A DNA stretch of 64,000 nucleotides from Methanothrix sp. (GTDB taxonomy: Archaea > Halobacteriota > Methanosarcinia > Methanotrichales > Methanotrichaceae): contig JBAXWY010000007.1 in the NCBI GenBank assembly GCA_037128175.1, positions 1 through 64,000 of the forward strand, in the 5' to 3' direction. The notes below the pieces were generated by a model that saw only the letters and a list, made by a program, of their open reading frames with translations, was not told the origin of the DNA and searched no databases. A program made the position numbers and the translations under genes. Each line of letters opens with the position of its first letter. Position 1 is the first letter of the stretch. Below are positions 1 through 14,146 of the stretch, in pieces.

Positions 1-128
1 CTTCGATCGATCGGAAGACCATCAATGGCCTTCTCCTCTCGGGCAGGGTTGCAAGGTCTGTAGCGTTTTTTGTCTTCGATCGATCGGAAGACCATCAATG
101 GCCTTCTCCTCTCGGGCAGGGTTGCAAG
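1..128. repeat. 55-bp direct repeat, 2 copies (1-55, 74-128), partial third copy at 161-176
   Basis: CTTCGATCGATCGGAAGACCATCAATGGCCTTCTCCTCTCGGGCAGGGTTGCAAG read twice, period 73 bp. Confidence 0.9.
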
Positions 129-474
129 ATACAATGATACAATGATGATACAAAAGCGATCCATCAATGGCCTTCTGATCTCGATACGGATTGCGGCCCA
201 TTTCCAGACTTCCAGAATCTTCCAGGAATTTCCAGAAATTGCAAGGTCGGTAGGTCGGTAGCTTAATCCGGTAGGTTTGGTAGGTATCATGCCTGCCTGC
301 TATTTTCGCCGCCTTCTCGTGTCATCCCACAGCGCCGGGAAGATCGCCCGCTAGACCTAGGGATTCATTGAGGGAGAAAAAAGCCTCTTAAAATCGATTG
401 CAGAAATTATAAAAATAGAATAGATTAATCAGAGATCTCACCGCGCGCTTTCATCTTCTTGTCATGCTGGTCTT

Positions 475-813
475 TCAGAAAAGGGACAGTTGTTTAGATC
501 TCATCATGCCGTGGTGCCTTCCATGCATGTTTTTCATGTTCATGCGATGGTCTATAATCCTAAGATTCGTTCGCTTGTCGTTTAATCCATTACCGTCTAT
601 GTGATCCACAAGCTCGTTTCTTTGCAGTGGCCTGCCCACGATTCGCTCAAATATCAGCCTATGCATACCGATTTGTTTATTTCCTTCTATTCGTCTTCTT
701 GCATAGAATTGATATCCCCGTTTGTTTTCAACAGCGAACCAGCTCGATTTTGCCAGGTCTCCATCACACTCATCGATTTCAGCTATTTTGTCTTTAGTTA
801 GTTGAATCTGCAT
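475..813 (-). CDS. HNH endonuclease (HNH_3 / homing type)
   Basis: MHRLI...VDHIDGNGLNDKRTNLR motif. Confidence 0.85.
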   Translation of the reverse strand: MQIQLTKDKIAEIDECDGDLAKSSWFAVENKRGYQFYARRRIEGNKQIGMHRLIFERIVGRPLQRNELVDHIDGNGLNDKRTNLRIIDHRMNMKNMHGRHHGMMRSKQLSLF

Positions 814-893
814 GGTTTGTTTAAGCCCCCTGAGTATTCAAATAATTGGCCTTATCATATCGGTTCCTTACCTAACAGATTCTTATGGGCGTG

Positions 894-971
894 TTAGGTA
901 AGAAAGAGGGAGAGGAGCAACAGCACCGCGCCCACAATACCCACCAGGGTTAGTGCCGTCTCAGTGCTCAC
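894..971 (-). CDS. Putative 25-aa single-TM peptide (not in ORF track)
   Basis: GGAGG-preceded GTG; MSTETALTLVGIVGAVLLLLSLFLT*; alternative ATG at 989. Confidence 0.45.
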   Translation of the reverse strand: MSTETALTLVGIVGAVLLLLSLFLT

Positions 972-1133
972 CGTCTCCCTCCCTGGCATGGCCTGAGATC
1001 CTCATAAGTTCGGGCCTGGTCGTGTCCTGCTCCAGCACCGGCCAGAGCTCCATATCCGATCCTGCCCAAAATTGCCGCGTTCTTTTATCCAAAATTAATT
1101 CCTTCTAAAAAAGAATGGATCCGGAAATATCTA

Positions 1134-1364
1134 TCATTTCGCCGCCTTCTTTCGGTTCGTGCTCCTGGCAACGGCTCGGAGATTGTCTTTTCGATTGCTT
1201 CCGCCGTTGCTAATCGGGTTCTTGTGGTCGCATTCTCTCTTATCACCAACTGCAAGCCCTAACTTCGCCCGTGCAGCGTTTCGCTGTGAGCGAGCCGCTA
1301 CTTGGGCAGGCTTGCCGTGAAAATCGCGGTATTCCTTCGCATAGTCGCGTTTCTTTTCGACCAT
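1134..1364 (-). CDS. Small phage-type HNH endonuclease
   Basis: RDYAKEY...CDHKNPISNGGSNRKDNLR...NRKK. Confidence 0.85.
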   Translation of the reverse strand: MVEKKRDYAKEYRDFHGKPAQVAARSQRNAARAKLGLAVGDKRECDHKNPISNGGSNRKDNLRAVARSTNRKKAAK

Positions 1365-1368
1365 GTTA

Positions 1369-2010
1369 TCAGCATCCCACGCCGCTCAGGATGTCCTCGA
1401 TTCTCTCCAGCCTCGGCACTAAATCGGCAAGCTCCGCCTTTGCTTTGGCAATCCGGGCTTCGGCTCCTGCCTTTTTGGCCTGGTAAATTGGATCTTCTGC
1501 TAGGGATTCTTCAGCTGATTTGCTTTTCCCAAAATTCTTTTGGATAGCAGCACTTGCCCAACTGGAGAGCACTGACCGCGCTTGCCTCTCTGCTCCCGCG
1601 AGGCTATCCCTCTGGCTTCTCATCTCGTCCAGCCATCCACAGCCAACCGAATCAAGCTCACGCATCGCTATTTCAAGGCGGGTGATCTGCTCGCTATGCT
1701 CCCTGATAGTGGTTTGGATAGTGTCGTACTTCTCGCGGTTAGCGATCCTGAAAGTTATGCCGTTCTTGCCTTCGACCGCTTCAAGGCATCCCATTGTCGA
1801 ACTTCGGATCATCGGCAACTGATCAACCAGCACCTTCCAGCGATGCACCAGAACGAACGTGCGGTCTTGTGCGTGGTGTCTCGCGTGTGCGTCGTGTGGA
1901 TCTGCCCTAAGAAGGGAGAGGCGGGCCGCCACGAAGGGCAACTGCTCAATGGGCATCACAGCGCCGGGCGTGGGACCGCTGGAGACCTCTTGCACTTTGG
2001 CGGCGCTCAT
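1369..2010 (-). CDS. Hypothetical coiled-coil protein of the element
   Basis: 213-aa ORF, GAGGTGA SD, 4-bp overlap with upstream gene. Confidence 0.7.
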   Translation of the reverse strand: MSAAKVQEVSSGPTPGAVMPIEQLPFVAARLSLLRADPHDAHARHHAQDRTFVLVHRWKVLVDQLPMIRSSTMGCLEAVEGKNGITFRIANREKYDTIQTTIREHSEQITRLEIAMRELDSVGCGWLDEMRSQRDSLAGAERQARSVLSSWASAAIQKNFGKSKSAEESLAEDPIYQAKKAGAEARIAKAKAELADLVPRLERIEDILSGVGC

Positions 2011-2348
2011 AAGCTCACCTCGATTGGGGATTTTGCGAGAAGGTCACTCTTTCTCACCTTCAAGCTGGTAAGCCTCTGGTAGAGAGGGTCAGGGTTGGTT
2101 AGCCGGGTCGTTGCTTCATGGACTGCCTGCTCTGTTGTGGCTATCTGCTCATCTATGGCCTCTATCTGCTCTCGGAGGTTAGCCGGGGCAGTCATCGCAT
2201 CCACACTAAGAAGCCTTTGCTTCTTCATTTTCAAGGAGATTACCCGCTCCTGTATGCGAATCATCTCATCCATGTTCATGTTATCGGAAATCTGCTTTTC
2301 CAAGCCGGATATTTCAGCATCCAGCGCCTCAATTTGTGGGTTTGGCAT
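2007..2348 (-). CDS. Hypothetical coiled-coil protein
   Basis: Internally duplicated QIEA(L/I)DxxI...R(V/L)xSLKx(K/R)K helical hairpins; GAGGT SD. Confidence 0.7.
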   Translation of the reverse strand: MPNPQIEALDAEISGLEKQISDNMNMDEMIRIQERVISLKMKKQRLLSVDAMTAPANLREQIEAIDEQIATTEQAVHEATTRLTNPDPLYQRLTSLKVRKSDLLAKSPIEVSL

Positions 2349-2389
2349 TTGTATAACCTCTTTGACATCACACCGGAAGGGAGGAACCC

Positions 2390-2707
2390 TTAACCGGCTT
2401 TATGATGTGCCGGGATAGGCCCGGCTGCCTCTCTACGTTCTCGGAGTCTGCCTATGAGGCGAGAGAGCCGGGCATCCAGCTCGACCGGGTTCATCGCCGC
2501 AACCTGCCCACACTCGGGGCATGTAGGGCTTGGTTCGGGCAGCGTCCACAAGGCAACGCGCGGCTTGCCTGCTACCAGCGCATCAACGCACGCGCCCAAC
2601 CTTTCCTTCTTCTCCGCTTCTGGTATAGCCGCCCATGCCTGACAGTACGGGCAGCCTTCTGGCTCCATTTTCGCTATGCGCTTAAGGAGATACTCTAATC
2701 GCCTCAT
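2390..2707 (-). CDS. Hypothetical protein with CxxC...CxxC Zn-binding motifs
   Basis: CPYC and CPECG; likely start MRRLEY at 2707. Confidence 0.65.
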   Translation of the reverse strand: MRRLEYLLKRIAKMEPEGCPYCQAWAAIPEAEKKERLGACVDALVAGKPRVALWTLPEPSPTCPECGQVAAMNPVELDARLSRLIGRLRERREAAGPIPAHHKAG

Positions 2708-2996
2708 TTTCGACAATCTCCTTAGACATGCTGGAAATACTTGTGAACAAAATCCCATGCTCGGTTGGTAGCGGTTTACGTTTTGCCCACATGGTTACAT
2801 CTGTCAGAACTTCCTGTGAAAGGGGCTCGGGGGTTTGCCCCAACTGCAGTGCCGTACAGAACTCCAGCAAATCAACAAACATATCCAGCAACGGCACTTT
2901 TGGGATCCACTTTGAACCGTCTTCCAAAACAATCGCTTCCTGAAAGGTTGCCGCTTCGATGGCTTCCAACCTCTTTTTTAACAGATCAAATCTCAT
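2682..2996 (-). CDS. Hypothetical protein
   Basis: ATGA overlap with upstream ORF; N-terminal LKKRLEAIE. Confidence 0.7.
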   Translation of the reverse strand: MRFDLLKKRLEAIEAATFQEAIVLEDGSKWIPKVPLLDMFVDLLEFCTALQLGQTPEPLSQEVLTDVTMWAKRKPLPTEHGILFTSISSMSKEIVENEAIRVSP

Positions 2997-3214
2997 TTTT
3001 TCTCACGCTCCAGCTCCGACAATCTCTTTTCTATATCCTCGATTTTTTCAACCTCATAGGCTTTGAGCCACACATTGAGCATTTGCACAATCGTTCCGCC
3101 GTCCTTCTCAAAGGGCAATTTGCCCGTCTCGGCAACGTCACGAAGCCAATTTTTAATGAGGTTTCGGACATCGCCGGGATTACTCAATTTCAATCTCTTA
3201 GTAATGATAATCAC
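2993..3214 (-). CDS. Small helical protein ending IEKRLSELE (possible terminase-small-subunit-like)
   Basis: C-terminal part of ORF 2993..3331; probable start near GGTGA at ~3205-3214. Confidence 0.6.
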   Translation of the reverse strand: MIIITKRLKLSNPGDVRNLIKNWLRDVAETGKLPFEKDGGTIVQMLNVWLKAYEVEKIEDIEKRLSELEREKK

Positions 3215-3435
3215 CTTTTTATAATTTCTAAGTTGGGGAGGGGTCCGCCAATTGCGGTTTGTCGTACTTGGTGCGGTCGTATCCCTTCGCCCTGGCCTGC
3301 TCTCGGGCCTTTCGCCTGGCATTGCTGGCATTGCTTCGCATGATGTCGTTTCTTGCCTTCCGGTTTCGGCTCTTTCCTCGGCTCATGGCCTCTCTTGCTC
3401 CTGGTTTCTCTTTGGGCTATTTCGGTAAGTCTCAT
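3211..3435 (-). CDS. Basic hypothetical protein
   Basis: 74-aa ORF co-oriented and overlapping next gene by 4 bp. Confidence 0.4.
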   Translation of the reverse strand: MRLTEIAQRETRSKRGHEPRKEPKPEGKKRHHAKQCQQCQAKGPRAGQGEGIRPHQVRQTAIGGPLPNLEIIKR

Positions 3436-3656
3436 AATCAGTTGGCTTTCGGTTCGGGTACATCATTTCCCGCAAAGAATCGCGGCTACTGTTATCGTCT
3501 TTGTCACTCATGCTGATCCGGCTCCTGGTCGCTTGCCATTTAGGATATTATCTATCTTCCTGATTTCATCTGATGCATATACAATTGTTTCAATTAAATG
3601 CTTCCTCAATTTAAGAAGAGGAGAGGAGCCTTCGGGCTCTATCATGCCTTCTCCTC

Positions 3657-6623
3657 TCATCGGGCCGGATAGCCACAGCCAACCACGGCACAATAGATTT
3701 TACCGCTCTTCTCGACGGTCCCTTTGCCGGTGAGATCCTGCCCACATTTGGCACATACCAAGGGAGGCTTCGGCAAGTTCGCGGCGGTACAACCAGTATC
3801 TAGCGGTTTAGTTCGCACAAAGTCCGCATCGGTTCGGCACAAAGTTCGCGGGGGCAAATCGCTATCTAGTGGTAGTAAGTTCGCAAGTTCGCCAGATTTC
3901 GCCCACGTGAGAGAGAGAATATTATTTTCATCCAAGGGAGAGGGTTCGCATAATATGTCCTCTCTCATATCCTTATATTCTACGAACTTACGAACTATCT
4001 CTCTACCAGACTCGTTTTTGACCTGCGAACTTCCCGCGAACTCATACGAACCTGACGAACAATCTCGCTTGATAGTGGTTTCGTCAGAGAGATATACGGC
4101 CTTGCCATAAGCCGCCAGGATGTCATAGTCTTCTGGTAATCGGTAGACTTTCCGGCGCTTCGTTTGCCGGGTGTCTTCATCGATTCGCTTTTGGGTGCTT
4201 TCGTCTTCCTCGGTCAGAGCCGGGCACTTGTGCAGCAACCCGTATTTCGCCTGCCCATCTCGGCTTCGGCCATTGAAGATGTCAGCTAACCCACCCTTGG
4301 ATATGCCGGTCTTTGTCATCACCATTTCGCGTGTAGCCTCTCCGTCGAGGTCCTTTATGGCCTGCAGTACCCTAAGTTCGCCGGGCGTGTACTTGGTGTC
4401 ACCGTGGCCTCGTATGGCATTGAAAAAGATTTCAGCATCTTTATAATCTTCATAGGATGCAACCACAGCACCGGCACTATCACGCGCCCTTATGCGATGT
4501 CTCCAGATTGCAAATGAGGAGACCAGGTCCGCAAATATGGTTGCTCCTCTCGGATCACCTGCGAACTCAATGTTATCAGAAAATGGAATTACCACATCAA
4601 ACAATACTTTTTTAAGTATGGATATTATCGCCTGACAGACTTCCAGCTCCCTAGAATCGAATGCCGCCGCGCCGCTCTTCCGTTGCAGGAAGATGAAATC
4701 GATGACTTCTCTGGTATGTTTCGCGGTTTCCGTGGTGTCAATCCTGAGCAATCTATCACGAATCTGTTCGTCGGTTTGATCATCGGCCGTGGTCAGCCAA
4801 AAGATGATTCTTGGTGCCGTCTTGAACTGCTTAATTTCGTGGTCTACAACAACGGTATGCGTTGCCCCTTCCCGGTAAAACGTGGTGCACGTCTTGAACA
4901 TTTGGGCAGCTTGATCATTCCAGCCAATATCATCCAGATAGACCACCGCGCCGGCGGGCAACCTCTCGCCCAAGTAGTACAGTGCTTTGGGGCTTGCACT
5001 GCCTACCAGTAAGTGACTTCCGGGTATGGCCTCAGATGCCTTCTCAGCGCCGTCACTCTTCCCGGACCCTCGCGGGCCACATGCATGAATATGCACACCC
5101 TTTGATGAGATGCAAGATTGTGCACCTATCGATAAGAATAGACCTTTTCCTAAGTTTTCATCGCCGTGGTGTCGCTTCTGCCAGACCTGGTATGCATACT
5201 CAAAACCCCTGCCTTCATCAAGTATCTTGTTTGCCTCGGCGAGGACATCCGGCGAGACTTCTTCCAGCTCCTTTGCCGCCTCGTTTGCCGCTAGTTCGCT
5301 TAGTTCGCGGGCCTTGCCGTCTACTTTCTTGTTAAGATCTCGGAGAGATACCAGGCCCTTCAGGATCGCCCTTATGCGTTCATACTCGGGCTGATTCTGC
5401 CTTTTGACGATTGCCAGGGCCTCGATATATTTGGCCTCAAATGGTAAGCCTGGGTCAGGGCTTAACTTCATTTGGTCTCTGAGATCAGTGACTAAAAGCA
5501 GCGCTTCGCCTACGTCCATGCTCGCCGCGGTCGGGCATCCAGACCTTGATTCTAGTATCTCCTCAGAGACCAGGCCCCTTTTTACGGCGTGCTCCAGCGT
5601 TGCCCTTACTGTCTGCGAATCCTTCAGCACGCCGGCACCGGCCCGCGCCCACGGTACAGCGCCGCACTCACATGCAAGCCATACCCACGGATCGCCGCCC
5701 GCGTTAATGCCGTTGTGCATCCAGCAATAATTATTTTTTGCTGGATTCACTACCAGGTTTTTGCCGGTTGTGCTGCCTTCCGTGGGATGAGGCCCAGAAA
5801 GCTGCCCGCCGCTTTCGATAAATCCCCTGGTATCTATCACATCCAGTATATCAAGTGCTGGAAACCGGCCCTTGCCTTCTGCATTTTTTGATTTTTCTGT
5901 GTGCTTAGACTTCCCGGCCCGGTTTTTATCAGGATCCGTCACAAAATCCTTTAGGGCAACGGATAGCGCGGCGGTGCTGTCGCTGTCCCTGATCGGAAAG
6001 CTGAGCTCTTCCAGCTTCATGCCGGTTATGCTGAGGTGCCGGTTTGCTTCGTAGAGCTCCAGCCCATTGAAGGCAGGCTGTCCTTTCGCTATTTTCTTGT
6101 GGGCATCCGGCTTTGCGGTTAGTATCGCTTCTTTATCTGCCTCGGTTAGATCGTCCTGGCAACCGTGGCCAAAGACATTATCAAGTTCGTTGGGCAGGTG
6201 TCCCCAACAGAAAAACCTTAGACCGGCACCGGAAGGACTTATTTCAGTATAAAAGGGCAAGATATCTTGCAAGAAAGCCGCCGCCCATGCCGAGATTGTG
6301 CCGGTGTCGGGATTTCGACAGCAATCAAGATCACCGCCCAACGGTCTCTTAACTTCGGGGCTGCTCCTGGCAACCAGGAAGCCTATTCCCGTTGCCGGTT
6401 GCATCTTGCCATCGCTCCAGACTTTAGCACCTCTCTGCAAGGCTTCTTCTGCCTCGGCTAAAGTCATCCAGTCTTCCCGGTGCAGGGGCCAGCCGGAAGA
6501 GGTGAAAGAGTTTGCGCGGTTGCCGTCTCTTATGTAAGGCTGCTTTCCGCACCTTATACAAAACTGAGGTAGGTTCGCCAGCTCAGGGGGAAGGGGTGCG
6601 GGAAGGGGGCCGCCATTGGACAT
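3657..6623 (-). CDS. AEP primase-polymerase fused to P-loop helicase/ATPase (replication protein)
   Basis: GIGF...GGDLD...YTEISPSG..LELY...SITG (NrS-1-like prim-pol), Zn-finger-like HP..GS...GGD segment, Walker A GPRGSGKS, C-terminal CxxC..C..C. Confidence 0.85.
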   Translation of the reverse strand: MSNGGPLPAPLPPELANLPQFCIRCGKQPYIRDGNRANSFTSSGWPLHREDWMTLAEAEEALQRGAKVWSDGKMQPATGIGFLVARSSPEVKRPLGGDLDCCRNPDTGTISAWAAAFLQDILPFYTEISPSGAGLRFFCWGHLPNELDNVFGHGCQDDLTEADKEAILTAKPDAHKKIAKGQPAFNGLELYEANRHLSITGMKLEELSFPIRDSDSTAALSVALKDFVTDPDKNRAGKSKHTEKSKNAEGKGRFPALDILDVIDTRGFIESGGQLSGPHPTEGSTTGKNLVVNPAKNNYCWMHNGINAGGDPWVWLACECGAVPWARAGAGVLKDSQTVRATLEHAVKRGLVSEEILESRSGCPTAASMDVGEALLLVTDLRDQMKLSPDPGLPFEAKYIEALAIVKRQNQPEYERIRAILKGLVSLRDLNKKVDGKARELSELAANEAAKELEEVSPDVLAEANKILDEGRGFEYAYQVWQKRHHGDENLGKGLFLSIGAQSCISSKGVHIHACGPRGSGKSDGAEKASEAIPGSHLLVGSASPKALYYLGERLPAGAVVYLDDIGWNDQAAQMFKTCTTFYREGATHTVVVDHEIKQFKTAPRIIFWLTTADDQTDEQIRDRLLRIDTTETAKHTREVIDFIFLQRKSGAAAFDSRELEVCQAIISILKKVLFDVVIPFSDNIEFAGDPRGATIFADLVSSFAIWRHRIRARDSAGAVVASYEDYKDAEIFFNAIRGHGDTKYTPGELRVLQAIKDLDGEATREMVMTKTGISKGGLADIFNGRSRDGQAKYGLLHKCPALTEEDESTQKRIDEDTRQTKRRKVYRLPEDYDILAAYGKAVYLSDETTIKRDCSSGSYEFAGSSQVKNESGREIVRKFVEYKDMREDILCEPSPLDENNILSLTWAKSGELANLLPLDSDLPPRTLCRTDADFVRTKPLDTGCTAANLPKPPLVCAKCGQDLTGKGTVEKSGKIYCAVVGCGYPAR
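3777..4060. repeat. Converging pentamer arrays (7x GTTCG then 6x CGAAC), putative element replication origin
   Basis: GTTCG at 3777,3811,3832,3844,3879,3887,3944; CGAAC at 3983,3991,4026,4037,4047,4056; AT-richer centre. Confidence 0.7.
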
Positions 6624-6850
6624 TAAGAAACCTCACGCACATGATATTTACCATCCAGCCGTAGGCAAGCCACTTCCCGCCCGATCATTTCGCGGAGCTT
6701 CGGCTCCAGCTCTTCCGGGAAAGCCACGGCGCCGAACTTGAACCCGGCAATGGCGAATCCATCCCTGAGAAAAACGGTAAGCAGAACGTCGCGGGCCTCT
6801 TCCAGCTCCGATAGCCGGCGCGGTTCGGAGCCGGTAGGATGATCGCTCAT
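6623..6850 (-). CDS. Small hypothetical protein
   Basis: TAATG overlap with primase start; start MSDHPT. Confidence 0.6.
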   Translation of the reverse strand: MSDHPTGSEPRRLSELEEARDVLLTVFLRDGFAIAGFKFGAVAFPEELEPKLREMIGREVACLRLDGKYHVREVS

Positions 6851-7080
6851 GTTCGCCGCCTTCTGCCGCACCGGCAAAAATCGGACCTGGCAAAGATATC
6901 TGAAAGATCATCGTCGCCGAGCATCCGGCGTGGCTTCATGCACACGCCACAGAACGCGCGGTTTTCAGATACTTCGGGTGCTTTTCGTTGGTCGAGGAAA
7001 GTCTTAAATTCTAAGCAATCGTAAAACATTACAGGTAACTCCTGTGGTCGCAATCGGAGAGCCGTTCGCCCTGAGGCCAT
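6847..7080 (-). CDS. Small Cys-rich hypothetical protein
   Basis: CxxC...CxC; ATGA overlap with downstream gene; start uncertain. Confidence 0.45.
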   Translation of the reverse strand: MASGRTALRLRPQELPVMFYDCLEFKTFLDQRKAPEVSENRAFCGVCMKPRRMLGDDDLSDIFARSDFCRCGRRRRT

Positions 7081-7107
7081 GCCCGTGGCCTCTTGGCATA
7101 TCGTTTT

Positions 7108-7278
7108 TCATGCTCCTCCCTGAATTGGCGAGATCTTCAGAGAGCCATCATCTAGCATTTCTATAGACACTTTATCGCCTTTTTCAATTCGTTTTGATTT
7201 CGTCCAGACCAACGGCAGATTAACAAAACTGCAGTTGTTGATGCGCTGGATTTTTCGTGATCCAAGAGCCAGACCCAT
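7108..7278 (-). CDS. AbrB/MazE-type DNA-binding protein, 56 aa (not in ORF track)
   Basis: MGLALGSRKIQRINNCSFVNLPLVWTKSKRIEKGDKVSIEMLDDGSLKISP; GGTGA SD. Confidence 0.8.
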   Translation of the reverse strand: MGLALGSRKIQRINNCSFVNLPLVWTKSKRIEKGDKVSIEMLDDGSLKISPIQGGA

Positions 7279-7395
7279 GCTCACCCTAATGATAAGCTAG
7301 AATATATATTAATTGTTGGATTTTGTGTGCAAAAAGTACAACAAATTCGATGCGTAGCGAAAATTTTATCAACCATAGCGGCCAATTGAAAAAAG

Positions 7396-7944
7396 GTGCC
7401 ACGAATCCTAACTGATCCCCAACTGACAACACTTTGCTATCTTGCAATAAATGAGATGGGATATTCTTCAACTGAATTAGTGAAAATGCTCGATAGTTCC
7501 CGATTAAAAATGGATAAACCAAGATTCTCAAGGGATATTCTTAAACCGTTGCTGGAAAAAAAGTGGATAACAATTGAAAAATCATCTGGAAATTATCGCC
7601 CCGGAAGGCCAAAAGAGATTCTGAAAATAACAAGAGACATATCAACAATATTCGAAATTGCTACATTTGCTTTAATGAAAGAGAAGGAATATGAGATAAA
7701 AAATATAGAAATCCATAAAGAGGCACAAAACCATGCGGATGATGTCGATTTTGATCCCGAATCGTGGGATCTCAAAATAGACAAAATAGAAACATCCCTA
7801 GAATTCTATGCTTATACAAGCAGCACATTTTACGAATTAAAGGAAAGTCTATTCTCGGATATTATGCGGAGGGCAGCCGGATCAACTGAGTCTAAATCCC
7901 CAACTGTGGAATGCACGCCAAATAAGCCTCTTTCAGCTCCTTAA
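7396..7944 (+). CDS. Winged-helix transcription regulator
   Basis: N-terminal wHTH pattern (LKPLLEKKWI...GRPK); divergent from AbrB gene. Confidence 0.7.
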   Translation: MPRILTDPQLTTLCYLAINEMGYSSTELVKMLDSSRLKMDKPRFSRDILKPLLEKKWITIEKSSGNYRPGRPKEILKITRDISTIFEIATFALMKEKEYEIKNIEIHKEAQNHADDVDFDPESWDLKIDKIETSLEFYAYTSSTFYELKESLFSDIMRRAAGSTESKSPTVECTPNKPLSAP

Positions 7945-8800
7945 GGTCTATGTGGTTGTACAGATCAAATGCCTCTTTCCGACTATCGCCCCTCAGCTCC
8001 TTGATGTACTCTCGCCTCATCCCTGCCCGGAAGAGGTGAGTACAGAACCAATGCCGGCAACAGTGCGGGCCGAAATGGTCCTCAAGCCGCTCGGACTCAG
8101 GATTATGTAGGCCGGTGCGCCTGGCCGCTTCCACTACCAGGTTATAGACTCCTGATCTGTTAAGCCGCTCTCCTTCATGATTCAAGAACAGCGCCGCGTT
8201 GCCCTTCGGGTTCATGCCTTCCCGAATCTTCAACCAGCGCCTGAGGAGATAGGCCGCCTCATCGTCAAAGAATACCGTTCGGTTGGTCCTCTTCGCGGTT
8301 GGCTTCAACCTGGCCTTATTTTCGATCAAGTCCACATCGGAGACATCCAGCTCTACCAGTTCATGCCGCCTTATGCCGGTCTTTGCCAGGAGTGCGATAA
8401 CCGCCTTATCTCTGATATCCATGGTGCAATTGATCAGATTGGCCATATCTTCCACAGAAATGAGCTTACGGGCCTGGCCATCGTCATTATCTTTGTAGCG
8501 CTTCAAGTATCGCTTTCTGACGGCCAGCACGGGGTTCTTGTCCACAACCTCTTCATAAGTCAGATATTCGTAAAAGCTGGATAGAACACTGAAATAATTC
8601 TCAATGGTCTTCGTTGTCTTGCCTTGCCCTTTCAGGTAGCCAATGAATCCTCGGAGTGCTTCTTTATCCACACTGGAAATATCTTTGCCGTCTAGGAAGG
8701 CGCAAAAATTCTTCAAGCAGTAACCATAATGCAGAGCGGTTATCTTTGTCTTGCCACTCAGTTCAAGGTCTTGCAGAAAATCGTTTATCAAGCGATCCAT
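7892..8800 (-). CDS. Tyrosine recombinase/integrase (XerC/D-like)
   Basis: SAM-like N-terminus, TGIRRHEL (R), HCCRH (HxxR), LRGD...LYNH (catalytic Y). Confidence 0.95.
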   Translation of the reverse strand: MDRLINDFLQDLELSGKTKITALHYGYCLKNFCAFLDGKDISSVDKEALRGFIGYLKGQGKTTKTIENYFSVLSSFYEYLTYEEVVDKNPVLAVRKRYLKRYKDNDDGQARKLISVEDMANLINCTMDIRDKAVIALLAKTGIRRHELVELDVSDVDLIENKARLKPTAKRTNRTVFFDDEAAYLLRRWLKIREGMNPKGNAALFLNHEGERLNRSGVYNLVVEAARRTGLHNPESERLEDHFGPHCCRHWFCTHLFRAGMRREYIKELRGDSRKEAFDLYNHIDLKELKEAYLACIPQLGI

Positions 8801-9297
8801 TGCCAGCCCTTGCCATCCGCCTTGATGAGGTTGAACTTTTCCAGCTCTTCCAACTGTCGCGACACTGCTTTGATGGCCTCGGATTCGCCCGGCCCGATCC
8901 CCAACAGCTCAAGGATCTGATAGCTTCCCACGTGGCCAGCACGCTTTAGGATGTCCACCAATTCGCGGGAATAGGGCCGCACGCCTTGGAATTGATCGGC
9001 CTGAAATGGCTCAGCTCTGTAGCGCCGCAACTCGCCCTCATATCTCTGCAAAACAACCTCTTTCTGCCTGAGATCGTCGCGAAGGGTCTTGTTTTCCGCC
9101 TTCGTTTGCTCCAGCTCCTTCGCGATCTCATGCCGCGGGACAAGGCCTTCTTCTACTGCCAACCGCTCCTCGATAATCGATACGCACCACGTAGATAATG
9201 GGGTCTCTGCCTTTTCCGCCAGGGCTTGCCATCTGTCTTTTTGGGCTTTAGAATTGGCATAGACCCAAATGTATCGCGATCTATCAGGTTTTACCAC
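8788..9297 (-). CDS. Integrase-linked protein (RHH-like N-terminus, coiled coil, wHTH-like C-terminus)
   Basis: Overlaps integrase start; sequence pattern. Confidence 0.7.
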   Translation of the reverse strand: MVKPDRSRYIWVYANSKAQKDRWQALAEKAETPLSTWCVSIIEERLAVEEGLVPRHEIAKELEQTKAENKTLRDDLRQKEVVLQRYEGELRRYRAEPFQADQFQGVRPYSRELVDILKRAGHVGSYQILELLGIGPGESEAIKAVSRQLEELEKFNLIKADGKGWQWIA

Positions 9298-9483
9298 ATG
9301 CTCACCTGATAAGGAAAAGGCTTCGAAGGTATTTAAAGCTTACCTGTAAAATAGAGTGAATATCCCACCCTCGGCGCTTATCGTTTTTTGAATAGGTCTC
9401 TTTGATCGACGGCAGGTTTGCCTTCTTCGCCAAGATTGGCATTGAGTTCTTGAACTATTCACTTACCAGTAAGCGTGCCATAT

Positions 9484-9793: not shown

Positions 9794-12700
9794 TCAGATC
9801 TTCACAGGAGCATGAGCCTTCTCTACTTCCGGACACCCCAGTGGGCAGGACCCCCCATCTTCGCCCGCATTATCCCACTGCATTTTCATCTGTGTTGCAT
9901 CCAAATAGTCGGTCTCGTTGGCCGTTTCCTGCTCCCAGCAGGCGCAGCTTATTCCCGGAACGTTCGCCGCTTCTGTCCCTGCGTTCCTCTTTGCGGGCGG
10001 GCAGCATCCCAGATATCCCCGGCTGATGACCGACAGGTTTTGCGCGAAAACCTGGCCATAGCTGCAGTTGCCCTCGACACGAGCCCGGTTGATGATATCG
10101 CCCTGGCACTTTTCCACATCCAGGTTGATGCCGATTCTCAAAGTATCACCGATGGAAAGATGCAGCAGTGTCCAGTTGGAGCCGTTCTGGCCGATCTGGT
10201 TGGGCCGCAACGTAGCGTTAAGGAACCGGGCCCCGGACGGGAAAAGGTCTTGCAGGAAGAGCGGCCCAATGGAGGCGTTGCCGTCATTGGTGATGGTGAT
10301 AGTATAAGCGGCCACGTCCTTGACCTGTTGCCCGTCTTTGCGAAGATAAAGGTGCGGTCGGTCGTAATTGGCAGCGCCGGAGAGGATGATCCTTCGCTTC
10401 ACTTCGTAGTCGCCCATGAAGATCTCATCCCTGTCCACCACAAGGGTTCCGTTCTTGCCCACAGCGGTCCGCAGCTTTGCCGTCCCGGAAAAGTTGGCCT
10501 CGCTCACAAGCTCCCTGGAGCTGGCCGCCGTTGCCTTCTTTTTCAGCCGGATGGTGCTGGAAAATTCCTCGGCGATGAGGCTTGATGGGCTATGGAGCCG
10601 CATCCCCTCCGACCACTTTTGAGATATGTTCAGAAAAGTGCGAGGCGTGACTTTATAACTTAAGCTATCGTAAGACGCATCCAGATCCTTGGCCATAAAG
10701 CCGGAAAATGTGTCACTTTGTTCGACAGCCCGATAGGCTCCTGTGCCGGACTCGTAGCTCCTCTGCCCCCGGGCTCGCGCATCTTTGGACACGTATCCCC
10801 GGCCGGAGGCGGAGCGGTCCATCATCAGGCCCTGGCCCAGATCGCGGACGCTCCCCTCAAGCTGAAAATATCCCGCATAGTCTTCTACCGAAAAGATATC
10901 TTCTTCGCGCCCCGTCGCCGGTCGTTTCAGCGTCCCCAGGTGGGCCAATCCTTGGAAATCGGACGTTATCTGCATCAACGATCCGTTTTCATCCAGATCA
11001 AAGAGGCTCTCGCTCTCCAGGTTGGCGGAATATCGATACGATTCTTCAAAGGAAGTGTTGGTGATGCCGTTCTTGGCACGAGCATCCTCGTGCCAGAGGC
11101 AGGAGACGTTCTGCAAGCCGTTTCCCGGTAGAAGAAGAGTTGTGGGATGATAGCTTGCCTTCACGCTTCTCTCCAGCCGGATGGATTTGTTGGTGGTGAG
11201 AAAGCGCAGATCTTCCTGATTCACGTAATCCCCGCTGCCGTGCTCACGCAGGCATAGCTCTGTCCCCTCTTCAGCCAAGATTTTCACATTTGCGGTTGCA
11301 GAGAGCTGCATCTGGTCGGAGGATACGTAGACACGGTTGGTGAGAAGGCCGGCCGGGCGGCGGGTGCTGTAGTCGCGGTAGGATCGGACGAAGCCCTGGC
11401 CGGTGACACTCTGTTGGCTCTGGTACAGGACGTCCGTTCTGGGAAGGCGCACCGTCAGGCCCATCTGCACGCACTGGCCGGGCGCAAGAGCTGGGAAATG
11501 CCAGACTCCATCCTGCGCCGTCTCCGGCCAGACGGAGACGAACTCTACGGCGGAGGCGAAGACATCGCGCACGGTGACGTTGGTGGCGCTCTCTCCTCCG
11601 TTGTTGCAGACTGTAATGATGTAGCTCACCTCCTCGCCCCGGCGCACTGCCTTTTGTAGCGCCGTCTTGTTGACGGATAGAAGAGTTCCATTCTGAACTT
11701 GTGTGTAAATGCTGCCCGATTTCGGCTCCAGCTCACTGCAATTGATGGTGAAGTGATTTAGCAGCAGGGCGCCGTCGGACAGAGTGTCCCCCACGTGCAC
11801 TTGCAGGCGAAAGGTGTGCGGGCCGTCCGGATCAAGGCTGGGAACGGTCCAGGCGATGTTCCTGGTGTTGTTCCAGGATGGGACCGGGTCGGCGGAGAGG
11901 AAGGTGGTGCCAGGATCCAGATCGTCCGTAATGTTGACATTGTGGGCGGCTCCAATGCCCTGATATTCATAGGTGAGGATGTAGGTGAGAATCTCGCCCA
12001 CCTGGACGGGATTGGGATCTGCGGTTTTGCTTATTGTGAGGCTCGCGATGTTCACGCGGGCAGAGGCCTCTCGAAGATAGTCGTTCACCCCTCCTGCGCC
12101 CGTGCGCTCCTCTGCGTCTGCGCCGGGACGGCTGGTCCAGGTCATAAGGGCGCGGCCCTCCACCAGATCGCCCGCGGCGGCGCGAGCCGTGGCATTGAAG
12201 CGGAAAAGGGCCTTTTGGCTGGCGTTCCAATCCAGGTCGAGGGCGTCCAGATGCCATCTGAGGGACTCGCCATCAAAAGCGGCGGCTGGACCTGCCAGGA
12301 CCTCTGCCGAGCCTGGATCGTAGGCCAGCCCCGCGGGCAAAAGGGGCTGCAGATCCACATCAAACGCAGGCACGCTACTCTTGTCGGAGTGGTAGAGGAG
12401 AAGGGTGAAGGAGACGCGCTCTTCCGGGGCGGCAAAGGGCCGGGAAGCCTGCATCTCCAGCACCAGCTCGGGCTCGACCACAGTCAGGGAGCCGGCCTCG
12501 TCGGCATCCGCTTTCTGAGCCAGGCCATCTTGCCAGCTCATGCGGGCTATCGTCCCTGCCAGGACAGCGCCATCCTGATTCTCGGGCTTGTTTGCCAGCA
12601 GGCAGTTGTAAGTGATCGCAATGGTCTCTGCGGGACCGGCGTCTCCAAAGAACCAGCCGATTGAATTTTCGGTAACCAGCTCGCGCTGCAAGCCCGTGCC

Positions 12701-14146
12701 CTGCACGAATAGGCTGCTCTTGTTGTAGATCAGGCCCTTTGCAATGGTATCGTTGATCCACAGGCCGTGCGCGCCGCGGGGCAGGTCGGCAGAGATTTCA
12801 TAGCCGACGGTTTCACCCACGGTCAGGCGGCGAGGCTGGTCTGGCATCTTTTTAAGGGCGGTTCTTGCTCCGAGCACGGAGAGCTGGCTGATCTCCTGGC
12901 AGGGGGCAGGCCCCCAGCAGGCTTGAAAGGTGCTGGAGTAGCTGCTCTGGGCGGATACCGCTCTGGCTTTGAGTATGATCTGCTCTGTCTGGCCTGGGGC
13001 AAGGGATGCATAGCTCCGGTTAAGTGAATCAATCTCTACAGGCTGCAAGCCCGGATCAAGTGTGATATTGACAACGACGCCGTAGGCAGTCCCATCTCCA
13101 TCGTTTCCCAGCAGAATGGTCCAGGCGATCTCATCTCCCTTAGCGATATCGAATCGATCCGGCGAGGCGGAAAGGCTCAAGTTTGCCCTTCTGATGTTTA
13201 AAGGAAGTTTCGGCGCGAGAGTTTTGCCGGCAGAAGAGATAATCTCCGCCGACAATTGGGCCTGGCTTTGTGCGCTGCATCCGGCTGTGAGATTGAACTG
13301 CAAACGCATAGATTCACCTGCATAAATATCTGCAGAGCTTCCGCCATTAGAACTTCCTGAAGTTGCCGCCTGAAATTTCCAATCCAGATCGCTGTCCAGG
13401 TCTTTGCCATTGGGATAACGCGCCCAGCAGATATTATTGTTCTTATCATCCTTGACCAGGGATGTGCGGTCAACCTCTCTCCCAGCAGAATCCAAAAGGG
13501 AAATGCTGCTTGGGTAAGAGTTGACCAAGGAGCCATTGGTCCAGGTGAGGAGTTGATAGCCATCAGGCACGATAACTGTGCCAGGGGAAAAAGAAACCGA
13601 CTTCTTATAGTAGCTGTCGACGAGCTTCCACCCACCGATATTGACTGCCTGGGAAGTTGGATTGTATAGCTCAATCCATTCCTTTAAAGTGTCTGAGCCT
13701 TCTGGATTTTGCTCCCATTCGTTTATTATGATGTGTCGATTGGATTTTAGTGCACTAGAAATGTCCCACTGTAGAGACTGACCGCTTTGGTAAGGCTCAC
13801 AAGATGACTTTGTGCCGTGCAAAATGATATTTGCGTTTCTTGTATAGCTGAATCCCAGAGGAACCTGGAGCTGTGCAGACAGACTTCGAGCATCATCGCT
13901 GGAAATGAAATTCATTTCGTAAACGCCTTCTCCAGAGACATCTACCTCGGAGGGGGCAAAGAGGTTCAGAGATGAGGCAGCGGCCGGCAAGAAAATCGTA
14001 TAAGATAATATAAAAAATGCTAGTATAATATAAAGTGACTGGGTTGTTTTATTTTCATAACATATTTTAGATATATAATGTGTTTTATCGGCAATGCGTT
14101 TATGTTCATTCGGATTGGTGCGTCCTAAATAAGATTCTATTGGCAT
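9794..14146 (-). CDS. Large secreted/surface protein with lamin-tail domain and DUF11 repeats
   Basis: IIINEWEQNP..EWIELYN (LTD); repeated SKTADP..VGE.LTY...NV.ITD (DUF11); hydrophobic N-terminus; start uncertain. Confidence 0.85.
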   Translation of the reverse strand: MPIESYLGRTNPNEHKRIADKTHYISKICYENKTTQSLYIILAFFILSYTIFLPAAASSLNLFAPSEVDVSGEGVYEMNFISSDDARSLSAQLQVPLGFSYTRNANIILHGTKSSCEPYQSGQSLQWDISSALKSNRHIIINEWEQNPEGSDTLKEWIELYNPTSQAVNIGGWKLVDSYYKKSVSFSPGTVIVPDGYQLLTWTNGSLVNSYPSSISLLDSAGREVDRTSLVKDDKNNNICWARYPNGKDLDSDLDWKFQAATSGSSNGGSSADIYAGESMRLQFNLTAGCSAQSQAQLSAEIISSAGKTLAPKLPLNIRRANLSLSASPDRFDIAKGDEIAWTILLGNDGDGTAYGVVVNITLDPGLQPVEIDSLNRSYASLAPGQTEQIILKARAVSAQSSYSSTFQACWGPAPCQEISQLSVLGARTALKKMPDQPRRLTVGETVGYEISADLPRGAHGLWINDTIAKGLIYNKSSLFVQGTGLQRELVTENSIGWFFGDAGPAETIAITYNCLLANKPENQDGAVLAGTIARMSWQDGLAQKADADEAGSLTVVEPELVLEMQASRPFAAPEERVSFTLLLYHSDKSSVPAFDVDLQPLLPAGLAYDPGSAEVLAGPAAAFDGESLRWHLDALDLDWNASQKALFRFNATARAAAGDLVEGRALMTWTSRPGADAEERTGAGGVNDYLREASARVNIASLTISKTADPNPVQVGEILTYILTYEYQGIGAAHNVNITDDLDPGTTFLSADPVPSWNNTRNIAWTVPSLDPDGPHTFRLQVHVGDTLSDGALLLNHFTINCSELEPKSGSIYTQVQNGTLLSVNKTALQKAVRRGEEVSYIITVCNNGGESATNVTVRDVFASAVEFVSVWPETAQDGVWHFPALAPGQCVQMGLTVRLPRTDVLYQSQQSVTGQGFVRSYRDYSTRRPAGLLTNRVYVSSDQMQLSATANVKILAEEGTELCLREHGSGDYVNQEDLRFLTTNKSIRLERSVKASYHPTTLLLPGNGLQNVSCLWHEDARAKNGITNTSFEESYRYSANLESESLFDLDENGSLMQITSDFQGLAHLGTLKRPATGREEDIFSVEDYAGYFQLEGSVRDLGQGLMMDRSASGRGYVSKDARARGQRSYESGTGAYRAVEQSDTFSGFMAKDLDASYDSLSYKVTPRTFLNISQKWSEGMRLHSPSSLIAEEFSSTIRLKKKATAASSRELVSEANFSGTAKLRTAVGKNGTLVVDRDEIFMGDYEVKRRIILSGAANYDRPHLYLRKDGQQVKDVAAYTITITNDGNASIGPLFLQDLFPSGARFLNATLRPNQIGQNGSNWTLLHLSIGDTLRIGINLDVEKCQGDIINRARVEGNCSYGQVFAQNLSVISRGYLGCCPPAKRNAGTEAANVPGISCACWEQETANETDYLDATQMKMQWDNAGEDGGSCPLGCPEVEKAHAPVKI

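Follow-up and report, generated by a model that had tools for sequence, protein, structure and literature searches.

A tRNA-Ser-integrated element of Methanothrix with the layout of a phage-inducible chromosomal island and sequence links to head-tailed viruses

Phage-inducible chromosomal islands (PICIs), among them the Staphylococcus aureus pathogenicity islands (SaPIs), carry an integrase with attachment (att) sites, divergent regulators, a primase or replicase with its origin, and either TerS, Ppi, Cpm or Rpp proteins or the cos or pac site of a helper virus, and have no structural genes. They are induced by the helper and packaged in its particles, the cos-type islands carrying its packaging site. 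P4, at about 12 kb, has a primase-helicase, distant ori/crr repeats, an integrase acting at a tRNA, and Sid, Psu, and Delta; small HNH proteins are known to cooperate with terminase. Described here is an integrative element of a Methanothrix sp. with much of this layout. It covers the start of a 64,000-nt stretch (GenBank assembly GCA_037128175.1, contig JBAXWY010000007.1, positions 1 to 64,000 of the forward strand), called the window below, and runs onto a second contig of the same genome.

Like the cos-type PICIs and SaPIs, the element is about 13 kb long, with an integrase at one end and att sites, a divergent gene pair, a primase, small accessory genes, and no structural genes; like them also, it has a packaging-site-like block, in this case related to a tailed virus. 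It differs from PICIs in its archaeal host, in having a primase that is of archaeo-eukaryotic (AEP) type, and in lacking homologs of TerS, Ppi, CpmA/B, or Rpp, and it is known here from sequence alone. With P4 it shares a primase-helicase, repeats distant from the gene for it (a possible ori/crr), a size of about 12 kb, and a tRNA integrase, but it has no Sid, Psu, or Delta homologs and no cos homology to a known helper.

Within the archaea, one report names pSSVx and pSSVi, both on spindle-shaped viruses, as the only satellites known earlier, and proposes SRCEs of spindle viruses (10.1101/2025.02.15.638363); another proposes NMV2S, a circle of 3.8 kb, as satellite of a head-tailed Asgard virus (10.64898/2026.08.12.739948). 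All of them combine a plasmid-type replication module with fragments of virus modules, as the Methanothrix element does; most of them are tied to spindle-shaped viruses and episomal, whereas it is integrated, with a PICI-like layout and links to head-tailed viruses. The cryptic integrated elements of Thaumarchaeota, according to their description (PMC6563490), encode an integrase and often a primpol-S3H protein, have a median size of 17 kb, and lack hallmark virion or conjugation genes. The present element resembles these in its integrase and primpol-helicase, short att, size below 20 kb, and lack of hallmark genes, and agrees with the definition given there (an att-bounded region with an integrase, and without hallmark virus, conjugative, casposon, or insertion sequence genes). 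Unlike those, it is linked by sequence to packaging regions of head-tailed viruses, and members of its family carry terminase genes. The literature searched (supplements aside) describes no head-tailed archaeal virus with a PICI-like satellite of the integrated kind, nor any Methanothrix or Methanosaeta provirus or satellite that matches the family of this element.

The locus is an integrative element that is complete, its ends known exactly, and that has no recognisable virion genes of its own. It measures 12,796 bp and lies inside the tRNA-Ser(GCT) gene of the Methanothrix genome (G000), so that both the integrase with flanking att at a specific chromosomal site and the size (about 10-15 kb, without structural or lysis genes) of a PICI are present. 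The window is the start of contig C7; its left neighbour is the 4,750-bp contig C83, which carries the tRNA gene at 1246-1331 and 3,417 bp of the element beyond window base 1. An exact 18-bp repeat bounds the element (C83 1316-1333 and window 9362-9379, identical at 18 of 18 positions), its right-hand core lying 65 nt past the last element gene:

window 9362..9379, plus strand: attR core, a copy of the 3′ end of the tRNA-Ser(GCT) gene on C83 (18-bp exact repeat)

A 37-nt repeat at the start of C7 also terminates C83. The join between the two contigs is real, since an independent metagenome contig (L044, 19,981 bp) runs from C83 36-4750 directly into C7 1-15266 at 100% identity. Empty sites are found in two other genomes: in G043 the tRNA-Ser gene abuts a homolog of window 9362-9482 and beyond, and in G069 a gap of 270 nt separates it from the right flank. 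The GC content of the element equals that of the genome (0.508).

The initial annotation of the window, made from its letters, had described an integrated element with phage-satellite architecture at 1..9400. The element ends at 9379, and its left end lies on C83, not at base 1. The genes that it listed (an integrase, a long minus-strand run of small genes, an AEP primase, and two HNH nucleases) are all found at the locus, as are the upstream sequence and att repeats that it lacked, and related elements do occur in Methanotrichaceae (among them G055 and G089). Its statement that no capsid, portal, tail, or conjugation gene is visible was borne out by Pfam, PHROGs, and NCBIfam, and the open reading frames (ORFs) of C83 hold neither a virion morphogenesis module nor a type IV secretion system, either of which it had named as contrary to a satellite.

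The single most likely reading is that this element derives from a temperate tailed archaeal virus and is satellite-like, for which we infer both packaging and helper dependence; its probability is put at roughly 0.4. Three things lead to it: a packaging-site-like block, a small HNH gene beside this block, and a small-gene module at the place where relatives have terminase. The features concerned are:

window 174..285, minus strand: iteron block, with CTACC four times (249-283), CCTTGCAA, CTGGAA four times (202-235), then ATG
window 475..813, minus strand: HNH_3 endonuclease, 112 aa, homing-endonuclease-like (PF13392 8.5e-8; phrog_99 4.2e-13; PADLOC HEase 3.7e-5)
window 1134..1364, minus strand: small HNH endonuclease, 76 aa (PF01844 1.8e-4; phrog_4590 4.7e-11)
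window 2993..3214, minus strand: B112 family, a highly conserved 73-aa two-helix protein, where relatives have TerS (comparison with relatives)
window 3228..3386, minus strand: 52-aa basic protein, directly before TerS in relatives, with an in-frame 9-nt indel among them

Read forward, the iteron block has four TTCCAG (202-235) and four GGTAG (249-283) repeats, at a spacing of 8-13 nt. Window 174-239 is 80% identical (53 of 66 nt, E 1.4e-9 per genome) to G057:C1:929477-929538, in a complete one-contig genome. There, two bases separate the last of four CTGGAA repeats from the ATG of a TerS-like ORF, itself distantly related (6e-5) to the TerS-like genes of the relatives described below; this ORF is followed by a split TerL (1e-50 and 3.5e-26), portal (8.8e-21), minor head (2.6e-40), and major head (1.2e-72) genes, and then by adaptor, major tail, and tape-measure (2.8e-40) genes. 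The G057 region as a whole (C1:929481-950000) is a complete head-tailed provirus morphogenesis module, with TerL split into ATPase and nuclease ORFs. The homology in the element reaches the ATG, is broken by a 4-nt gap, and is overlapped by a degenerate copy of the 37-nt repeat. A triple-CTGGAA pattern has a single site in the 2.96-Mb host genome; a loose pattern matches in 14 of the 105 Methanotrichaceae genomes compared, with closely similar blocks in G057 and G090:C335 only.

The small HNH gene has homologs in nine of the 105 genomes. In G090:C335, a homolog of window 1107-1169 (its 3′ end and flank) is separated from the iterons by 236 nt, and the HNH_3 gene is missing between these same flanks, which makes the gene at 475-813 look like an insertion. 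A further homolog of the small HNH (67%) lies inside the head operon of a capsid-encoding element, G034:C23. That contig, of 20,991 bp, is made up of a unit of 11,923 bp that the assembly repeats 1.76 times, head to tail, and is therefore circular or concatemeric; on it are genes for TerL, portal, scaffold, a major head protein, and a head-morphogenesis protein, directly followed by the small HNH, and no tail, integrase, or replication gene was recognised on it. As predicted from these genes, it is a capsid-forming tail-less mini-element in a Methanotrichaceae genome, either like the capsid-forming PICIs (cf-PICIs) or a very small virus. Its content (TerL, portal, scaffold, major capsid protein, HNH, no tail, 11.9 kb) resembles that of cf-PICIs as given in 10.1101/2022.09.08.507074; unlike these, the window element is without any capsid genes.

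The place of the small genes is best seen in the relatives. The primase has 77 homologs in a large protein collection, the nearest labelled Methanothrix sp., and occurs in 29 of the 105 genomes (at 1e-20); the ATPase of a split TerL occurs in 36, several times a few kb after a primase match. A complete 20.2-kb relative lies in G055 (C65, about 36010-56206) at a tRNA-Glu(CTC), with a 15-bp att repeat. The two elements have genes of both arms in common: those for a SWIM-finger protein, a 224-aa protein, the primase (49%), an 84-aa, and a 77-aa protein, the integrase (61%), and a 169-aa protein (43%). After its primase the G055 element has a 176-aa helix-turn-helix (HTH) protein (TerS-like), a TerL split into an ATPase ORF (phrog_7579 1.6e-49; PF03237 1.9e-12) and a nuclease ORF (phrog_27743 1.1e-15), a 165-aa ORF, and a 900-aa ORF that is tape-measure-like by language-model features only (score 0.97, 124-141 shared features); the element had no match to a portal or capsid family. 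In G089 and in metagenome contig L055 the primase is likewise followed by the pair of TerS-like gene and split TerL, and in L048 and L050, which stop there, by the TerS-like gene alone.

In these terminase-bearing relatives the 52-aa basic gene stands directly before TerS, and in the element directly before B112, so that B112 and the genes following it occupy the place of the packaging module. A B112 homolog follows the primase in the same way in G012, G034, G009, and L052. The family comprises 112 clusters of 59-89% identity, none of them with a Pfam family, with longest contigs of 11-13 kb in many cases, and it is present in 25 of the 105 genomes; its structure model is a low-confidence two-helix hairpin (predicted local distance difference test, pLDDT, 67.5). 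One more B112 homolog is on a separate 11,991-bp contig of a two-contig genome (G023:C2), together with a 1124-aa primase-helicase and ribbon-helix-helix (RHH) proteins; its ORFs showed neither an integrase nor a packaging gene, and it is probably a plasmid related to the replication module of the element. That the element belongs to an undescribed Methanotrichaceae family, large, modular, and with ties to head-tailed viruses, is certain.

The minus strand has at least eight small ORFs between the primase and the HNH genes. Comparison with relatives corrected the gene calls, giving the 52-aa gene at 3228-3386 and the 73-aa gene, with a GTG start, at 2993-3214. The others are:

window 1369..2010, minus strand: 213-aa protein, a helical hairpin with a small beta element (AF2 model; homolog L051_234)
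window 2007..2348, minus strand: 113-aa coiled-coil protein (ORF with weak coiled-coil matches in Pfam, PHROGs, NCBIfam, and PADLOC)
window 2390..2758, minus strand: protein containing two CxxC pairs, of about 105 aa from its probable, more internal start (translation; no family match)
window 2682..2996, minus strand: 104-aa protein (ORF; no family match)
window 3383..3511, minus strand: 42-aa ORF, its stop overlapping the next start (ATGA), read from the letters only
window 3508..3644, minus strand: 45-aa ORF with GGAGAAGG, a ribosome-binding-like site, upstream (weak homolog in L051)

The 113-aa protein has no homolog in the loci of the relatives compared. For the 213-aa protein there are four close homologs, and 56 representatives among 1.84 billion proteins, with no relative in GTDB contigs or IMG/VR, no sequence match in PDB, and matches to single members only (3 of 41) in PHROGs. 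Its AF2 model is confident (pLDDT 95.4); with it Foldseek found nothing at E<0.1 in PDB or BFVD, while VIA-align found generic helical hairpins only (Z up to 8.8) and ESM Atlas matches had TM scores of at most 0.44. Identification of this protein as a scaffold, TerS, or Sid-like protein was rejected, there being no family or informative fold match.

The remaining window genes of the element are those of integration, regulation, and replication:

window 3657..6623, minus strand: replication protein of 988 aa, AEP primase with P-loop NTPase and C-terminal Zn-ribbon (profile and PDB matches, motifs)
window 6623..6877, minus strand: 84-aa protein, upstream of the primase in relatives too (seven loci, 40-50% identity)
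window 6847..7080, minus strand: 77-aa Cys-rich protein (G055 homolog, 51%)
window 7108..7284, minus strand: 58-aa AbrB/SpoVT-like candidate in the Cro position (AbrB/MazE PF04014 1.7e-3, below cut-off)
window 7396..7944, plus strand: 182-aa winged helix-turn-helix (wHTH) candidate in the repressor position, the sole plus-strand gene of this arm (NCBIfam MreA 8.6e-4, below cut-off)
window 7892..8800, minus strand: tyrosine integrase, 302 aa (PF00589 9.1e-28; phrog_1 4e-39)
window 8788..9297, minus strand: 169-aa protein adjoining the integrase (79% in G089, 43% in G055)

The integrase matches NCBIfam XerA at 2.2e-52, yet below the XerA cut-off, and is 85% identical in G089 and 61% in G055. Its 169-aa neighbour, found next to the integrase in every case, appears by eye to have an RHH-like N-terminus, followed by a coiled coil and an HTH-like C-terminus (weak ArsR HTH in NCBIfam), and has no match among PDB sequences; it is a candidate directionality or regulatory factor. 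The divergent wHTH/AbrB pair of the initial annotation is certain as an arrangement, of the 182-aa and 58-aa ORFs, but its family names are weak, both resting on matches below cut-off. The N-terminus of the 988-aa protein is an AEP primase (phrog_1829 1.5e-10; PDB “Primase” chains 7rr4/6k9a 9e-4). In the Pfam library scanned, which lacks PF27228, the family precomputed for this protein, there is no match; a Walker A motif, GPRGSGKS, lies mid-protein, and D98, D100, G134, and K522 are invariant in 15 homologs. The C-terminal third of this protein also occurs fused to radical-SAM (PF04055), and elsewhere to D5_N/DUF5906 or PrimPol domains, a module freely swapped between proteins.

The C83 arm has six plus-strand ORFs, none with a match at 0.05 that reaches the Pfam gathering cut-off; their PHROG matches are at 0.004 or weaker and mostly to families of unknown function, and one ORF encodes, to judge by the homolog in G055, a SWIM-finger protein. 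None of the ORFs scanned in the window (22 with Pfam, 19 with PHROGs, 19 with NCBIfam) or on the upstream contig (10 and 6) matched a family of capsid, portal, tail, terminase, or conjugation proteins. TerL, portal, and HK97-type major capsid genes had no match anywhere in the element, with a library that detects all three in G057 and G034:C23; nor did any ORF have a Pfam or PHROG match to the capsid-size and transactivation genes Sid, Psu, and Delta. PADLOC, run on 24 proteins, gave a homing-endonuclease match and a chance-level LmuB match, with no defence gene recognised, and the interpretation as a defence island was rejected on this ground. No mobilisation or partition gene was found in the element, which is apparently intact. 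To its right, the first host gene (window 9794-14146, minus strand) is that of a surface protein of 1450 aa, which has DUF11 repeats and a lamin-tail domain.

The convergent arms are separated by a non-coding centre, from C83 4448 to window 474. In order, this contains a promoter-like element, four 37-nt repeats, and an AT-rich interval with three ATACAA, followed by the TTCCAG and GGTAG repeats of the iteron block; so repeat-dense a region would be a plausible replication origin. The promoter-like element, of about 140 nt (C83 4500-4640), has a TTATAATA box and a conserved hairpin, and occurs in 30 of the 105 genomes, in up to six copies, before differing unrelated sequences. Elsewhere in the host it is found at C22:43095-43173, C23:40135-40192, and C25:3442-3497; in G055 it precedes the gene for a secreted DUF4352 protein, and four metagenome runs cover it at 2-5 times the depth of the element. 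Joints at L044 15455-15669 were taken as cross-matches, since they are located in this multi-copy sequence. The repeats that follow it are:

window 1..197 (19-55, 92-128, degenerate 161-197) and C83 4696-4732, plus strand: array of 37-nt repeats (sequence comparison)

The intervals are of 36, 36 (identical), and 32 nt, in the order R-S1-R-S1-R-S2-R′, a CRISPR-like geometry. A virus- or plasmid-borne mini-CRISPR extending from C83 4696 to window 197, directed against competing elements, could be imagined from this geometry and its degenerate last repeat, transcribed from the conserved, TATA-containing promoter-like element that points into the array from about 110 nt upstream. This is very improbable: the repeat agrees with the nearest host CRISPR repeat at 17 of 37 positions (counted by eye); it is absent from the 104 other family genomes (with up to three mismatches), from IMG/VR contigs, and, even as a degenerate pattern, from GTDB genome contigs; the two identical “spacers” have no target in the 104 genomes or IMG/VR; the start of the interval repeats a neighbouring motif, TTGCAAGGTC; the degenerate repeat overlaps the TerS-start homology; and no cas family was matched in the element by Pfam, PHROGs, NCBIfam, or PADLOC. 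A cas-linked repeat and unique spacers, by which CRISPR arrays are defined, are thus lacking, and as no Rfam family was found there either, a mini-CRISPR was rejected as the main explanation. The host has CRISPR arrays of its own (C3 115461-117822, C20 8022-11909, C32 19-555, and C7 89573-91120), with three different 36-37-nt repeats, none related to that of the element.

Some part of the element occurs in 15 of the 18 runs listed, and half or more of its sampled words in seven; these runs come from eight studies and are recorded as freshwater or lake metagenomes, not as the digesters in which the initial annotation would have looked. Six runs from five studies (X1-X6) have it at more than 89% of sampled words. 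Four runs were examined, as assembled contigs, for depth and junctions. They show integrated copies: attR is spanned by contigs in X1 and X6, and attL by contigs in X1 and X5. In X3, two contigs (4049-5905 and 5876-8576) overlap by 30 nt precisely where the att core has its inner edge, which is no more than a hint of an alternative junction.

If the element is a satellite, the integrase, perhaps with the 169-aa protein, would insert and excise it at the tRNA, and the plus-strand wHTH protein would keep the long minus-strand operon silent. After derepression, the primase-NTPase would replicate the circle from the repeat-rich non-coding centre, and the terminase of a co-infecting head-tailed virus would package it, recognising the CTGGAA block, whose homolog lies upstream of TerS in such a virus. 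The adjacent small HNH, and the B112 and 52-aa proteins at the TerS-TerL place of the relatives, would assist or redirect packaging. In agreement with this, 12.8 kb falls within the 11-18 kb given for HK97-type satellites in PMC13669383, and the backbone (integrase, 169-aa protein, regulator pair, 84-aa protein, and primase-NTPase) is common to elements that carry terminase. Several observations weigh on the other side. The iteron homology may be a relic, since the TerS start is frame-broken; both HNH genes have host paralogs outside recognisable viral context (86% on C23 for the small HNH, 54% on C24 for HNH_3), and HNH_3, from its absence in G090, looks like a recent insertion. No family or fold match to TerS, scaffold, or Sid/Cpm was found in ORFs 1134-3435, nor of the small proteins to any other family or fold, nor any homology of the accessory proteins to TerS, Ppi, CpmA/B, or Rpp by Pfam or PHROGs. 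Depth is alike inside and outside the element (in X1, 23.8 against 24.4-24.8 in flanking contigs), and none of the four runs shows extra copies or a circular junction at the att sites, evidence that is weak because it comes from contigs only. IMG/VR has no relative of B112, of the 213-aa protein, or closely of the primase, only helicase relatives of about 30% identity. The one recognisable provirus fragment of the host, C56, has an unrelated terminase, and the genome has no second iteron site. C56 (15,347 bp; head-tailed, with ORFs of the sizes of TerS, TerL, portal, and major capsid protein and a Terminase_6N match) was considered as helper and rejected, having no gene or site in common with the element. 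Of the satellite proposal in the initial annotation, then, the PICI-like layout is real, and links to head-tailed viruses have been added to it, but helper dependence, excision, and encapsidation are proposals; the TerS-, scaffold-, Sid-, or Cpm-like folds and the circular forms that it looked to were not found in the material just named.

An integrative plasmid or cryptic integrated element, with a primase-NTPase, an iteron-rich origin, tRNA-Ser integration, and no virion stage, follows close behind, because one relative is plasmid-like, no sign of excision was seen, and IMG/VR lacks the element; it too can be held only tentatively. The HNH genes and iteron block would then be cargo or recombination scars. 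The separate contig G023:C2, with primase and B112 homolog and no integrase seen, points to a plasmid lifestyle as much as to anything viral, and the 11-13-kb longest contigs of many B112 clusters, the origin-like centre, the matching GC content, the want of extra copies, and the agreement with the definition in PMC6563490 all suit it. It leaves unexplained the homology of the HNH-adjacent block to the 5′ flank of a tailed provirus TerS, and why three independent elements that lack capsid genes have kept their TerS and split TerL ORFs intact; the missing mobilisation and partition genes do not favour it. Decay of a head-tailed provirus, now immobile, its morphogenesis module lost and the iterons and TerS start left as relics, would account for the 4-nt gap in the TerS-start homology, for the G055 relative, which looks as though the middle were missing between TerS-TerL and a tape-measure-like gene, and for the wide occurrence of split TerL beside primase. 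Such a remnant is unlikely, since att cores, ORFs, and conservation are intact: the cores are identical, integrase, primase, and small ORFs are open, B112 is 59-89% identical across 112 clusters, and the 52-aa gene stays in frame through its 9-nt indel. The high coverage of the element in X1-X6, the empty site in relatives, and the contig-graph branch at the att edge in one run also argue against it.

Beyond the satellite-like derivative proposed for this one locus, it is conceivable, if rather doubtful, that Methanotrichaceae host a system of PICI-like satellites of head-tailed viruses, in which one integrase/primase backbone is combined with interchangeable packaging-hijack modules. One type of module may bring its own TerS and split TerL; the other, that of the present element, may consist of a helper-type packaging site and, to redirect the terminase of the helper, a small HNH together with B112, the basic 52-aa protein, and the 213-aa hairpin protein as novel small proteins; the CTGGAA packaging site would possibly be amplified as the 37-nt repeat array. 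If so, the recurring size of about 12 kb (the element, G034:C23 at 11.9 kb, G023:C2 at 11,991 bp, and the 11-13-kb B112 contigs) would be that of a small-capsid class.

Even on a conservative view, there is in Methanotrichaceae a widespread and so far unnamed family of mobile elements (primase in 29, B112 in 25, and split TerL in 36 of the 105 genomes), for which exact att sites and several conserved proteins without known family or fold are now in hand. Methanothrix is a major acetoclastic methanogen, and elements that interfere with its viruses would therefore bear on methane ecology.

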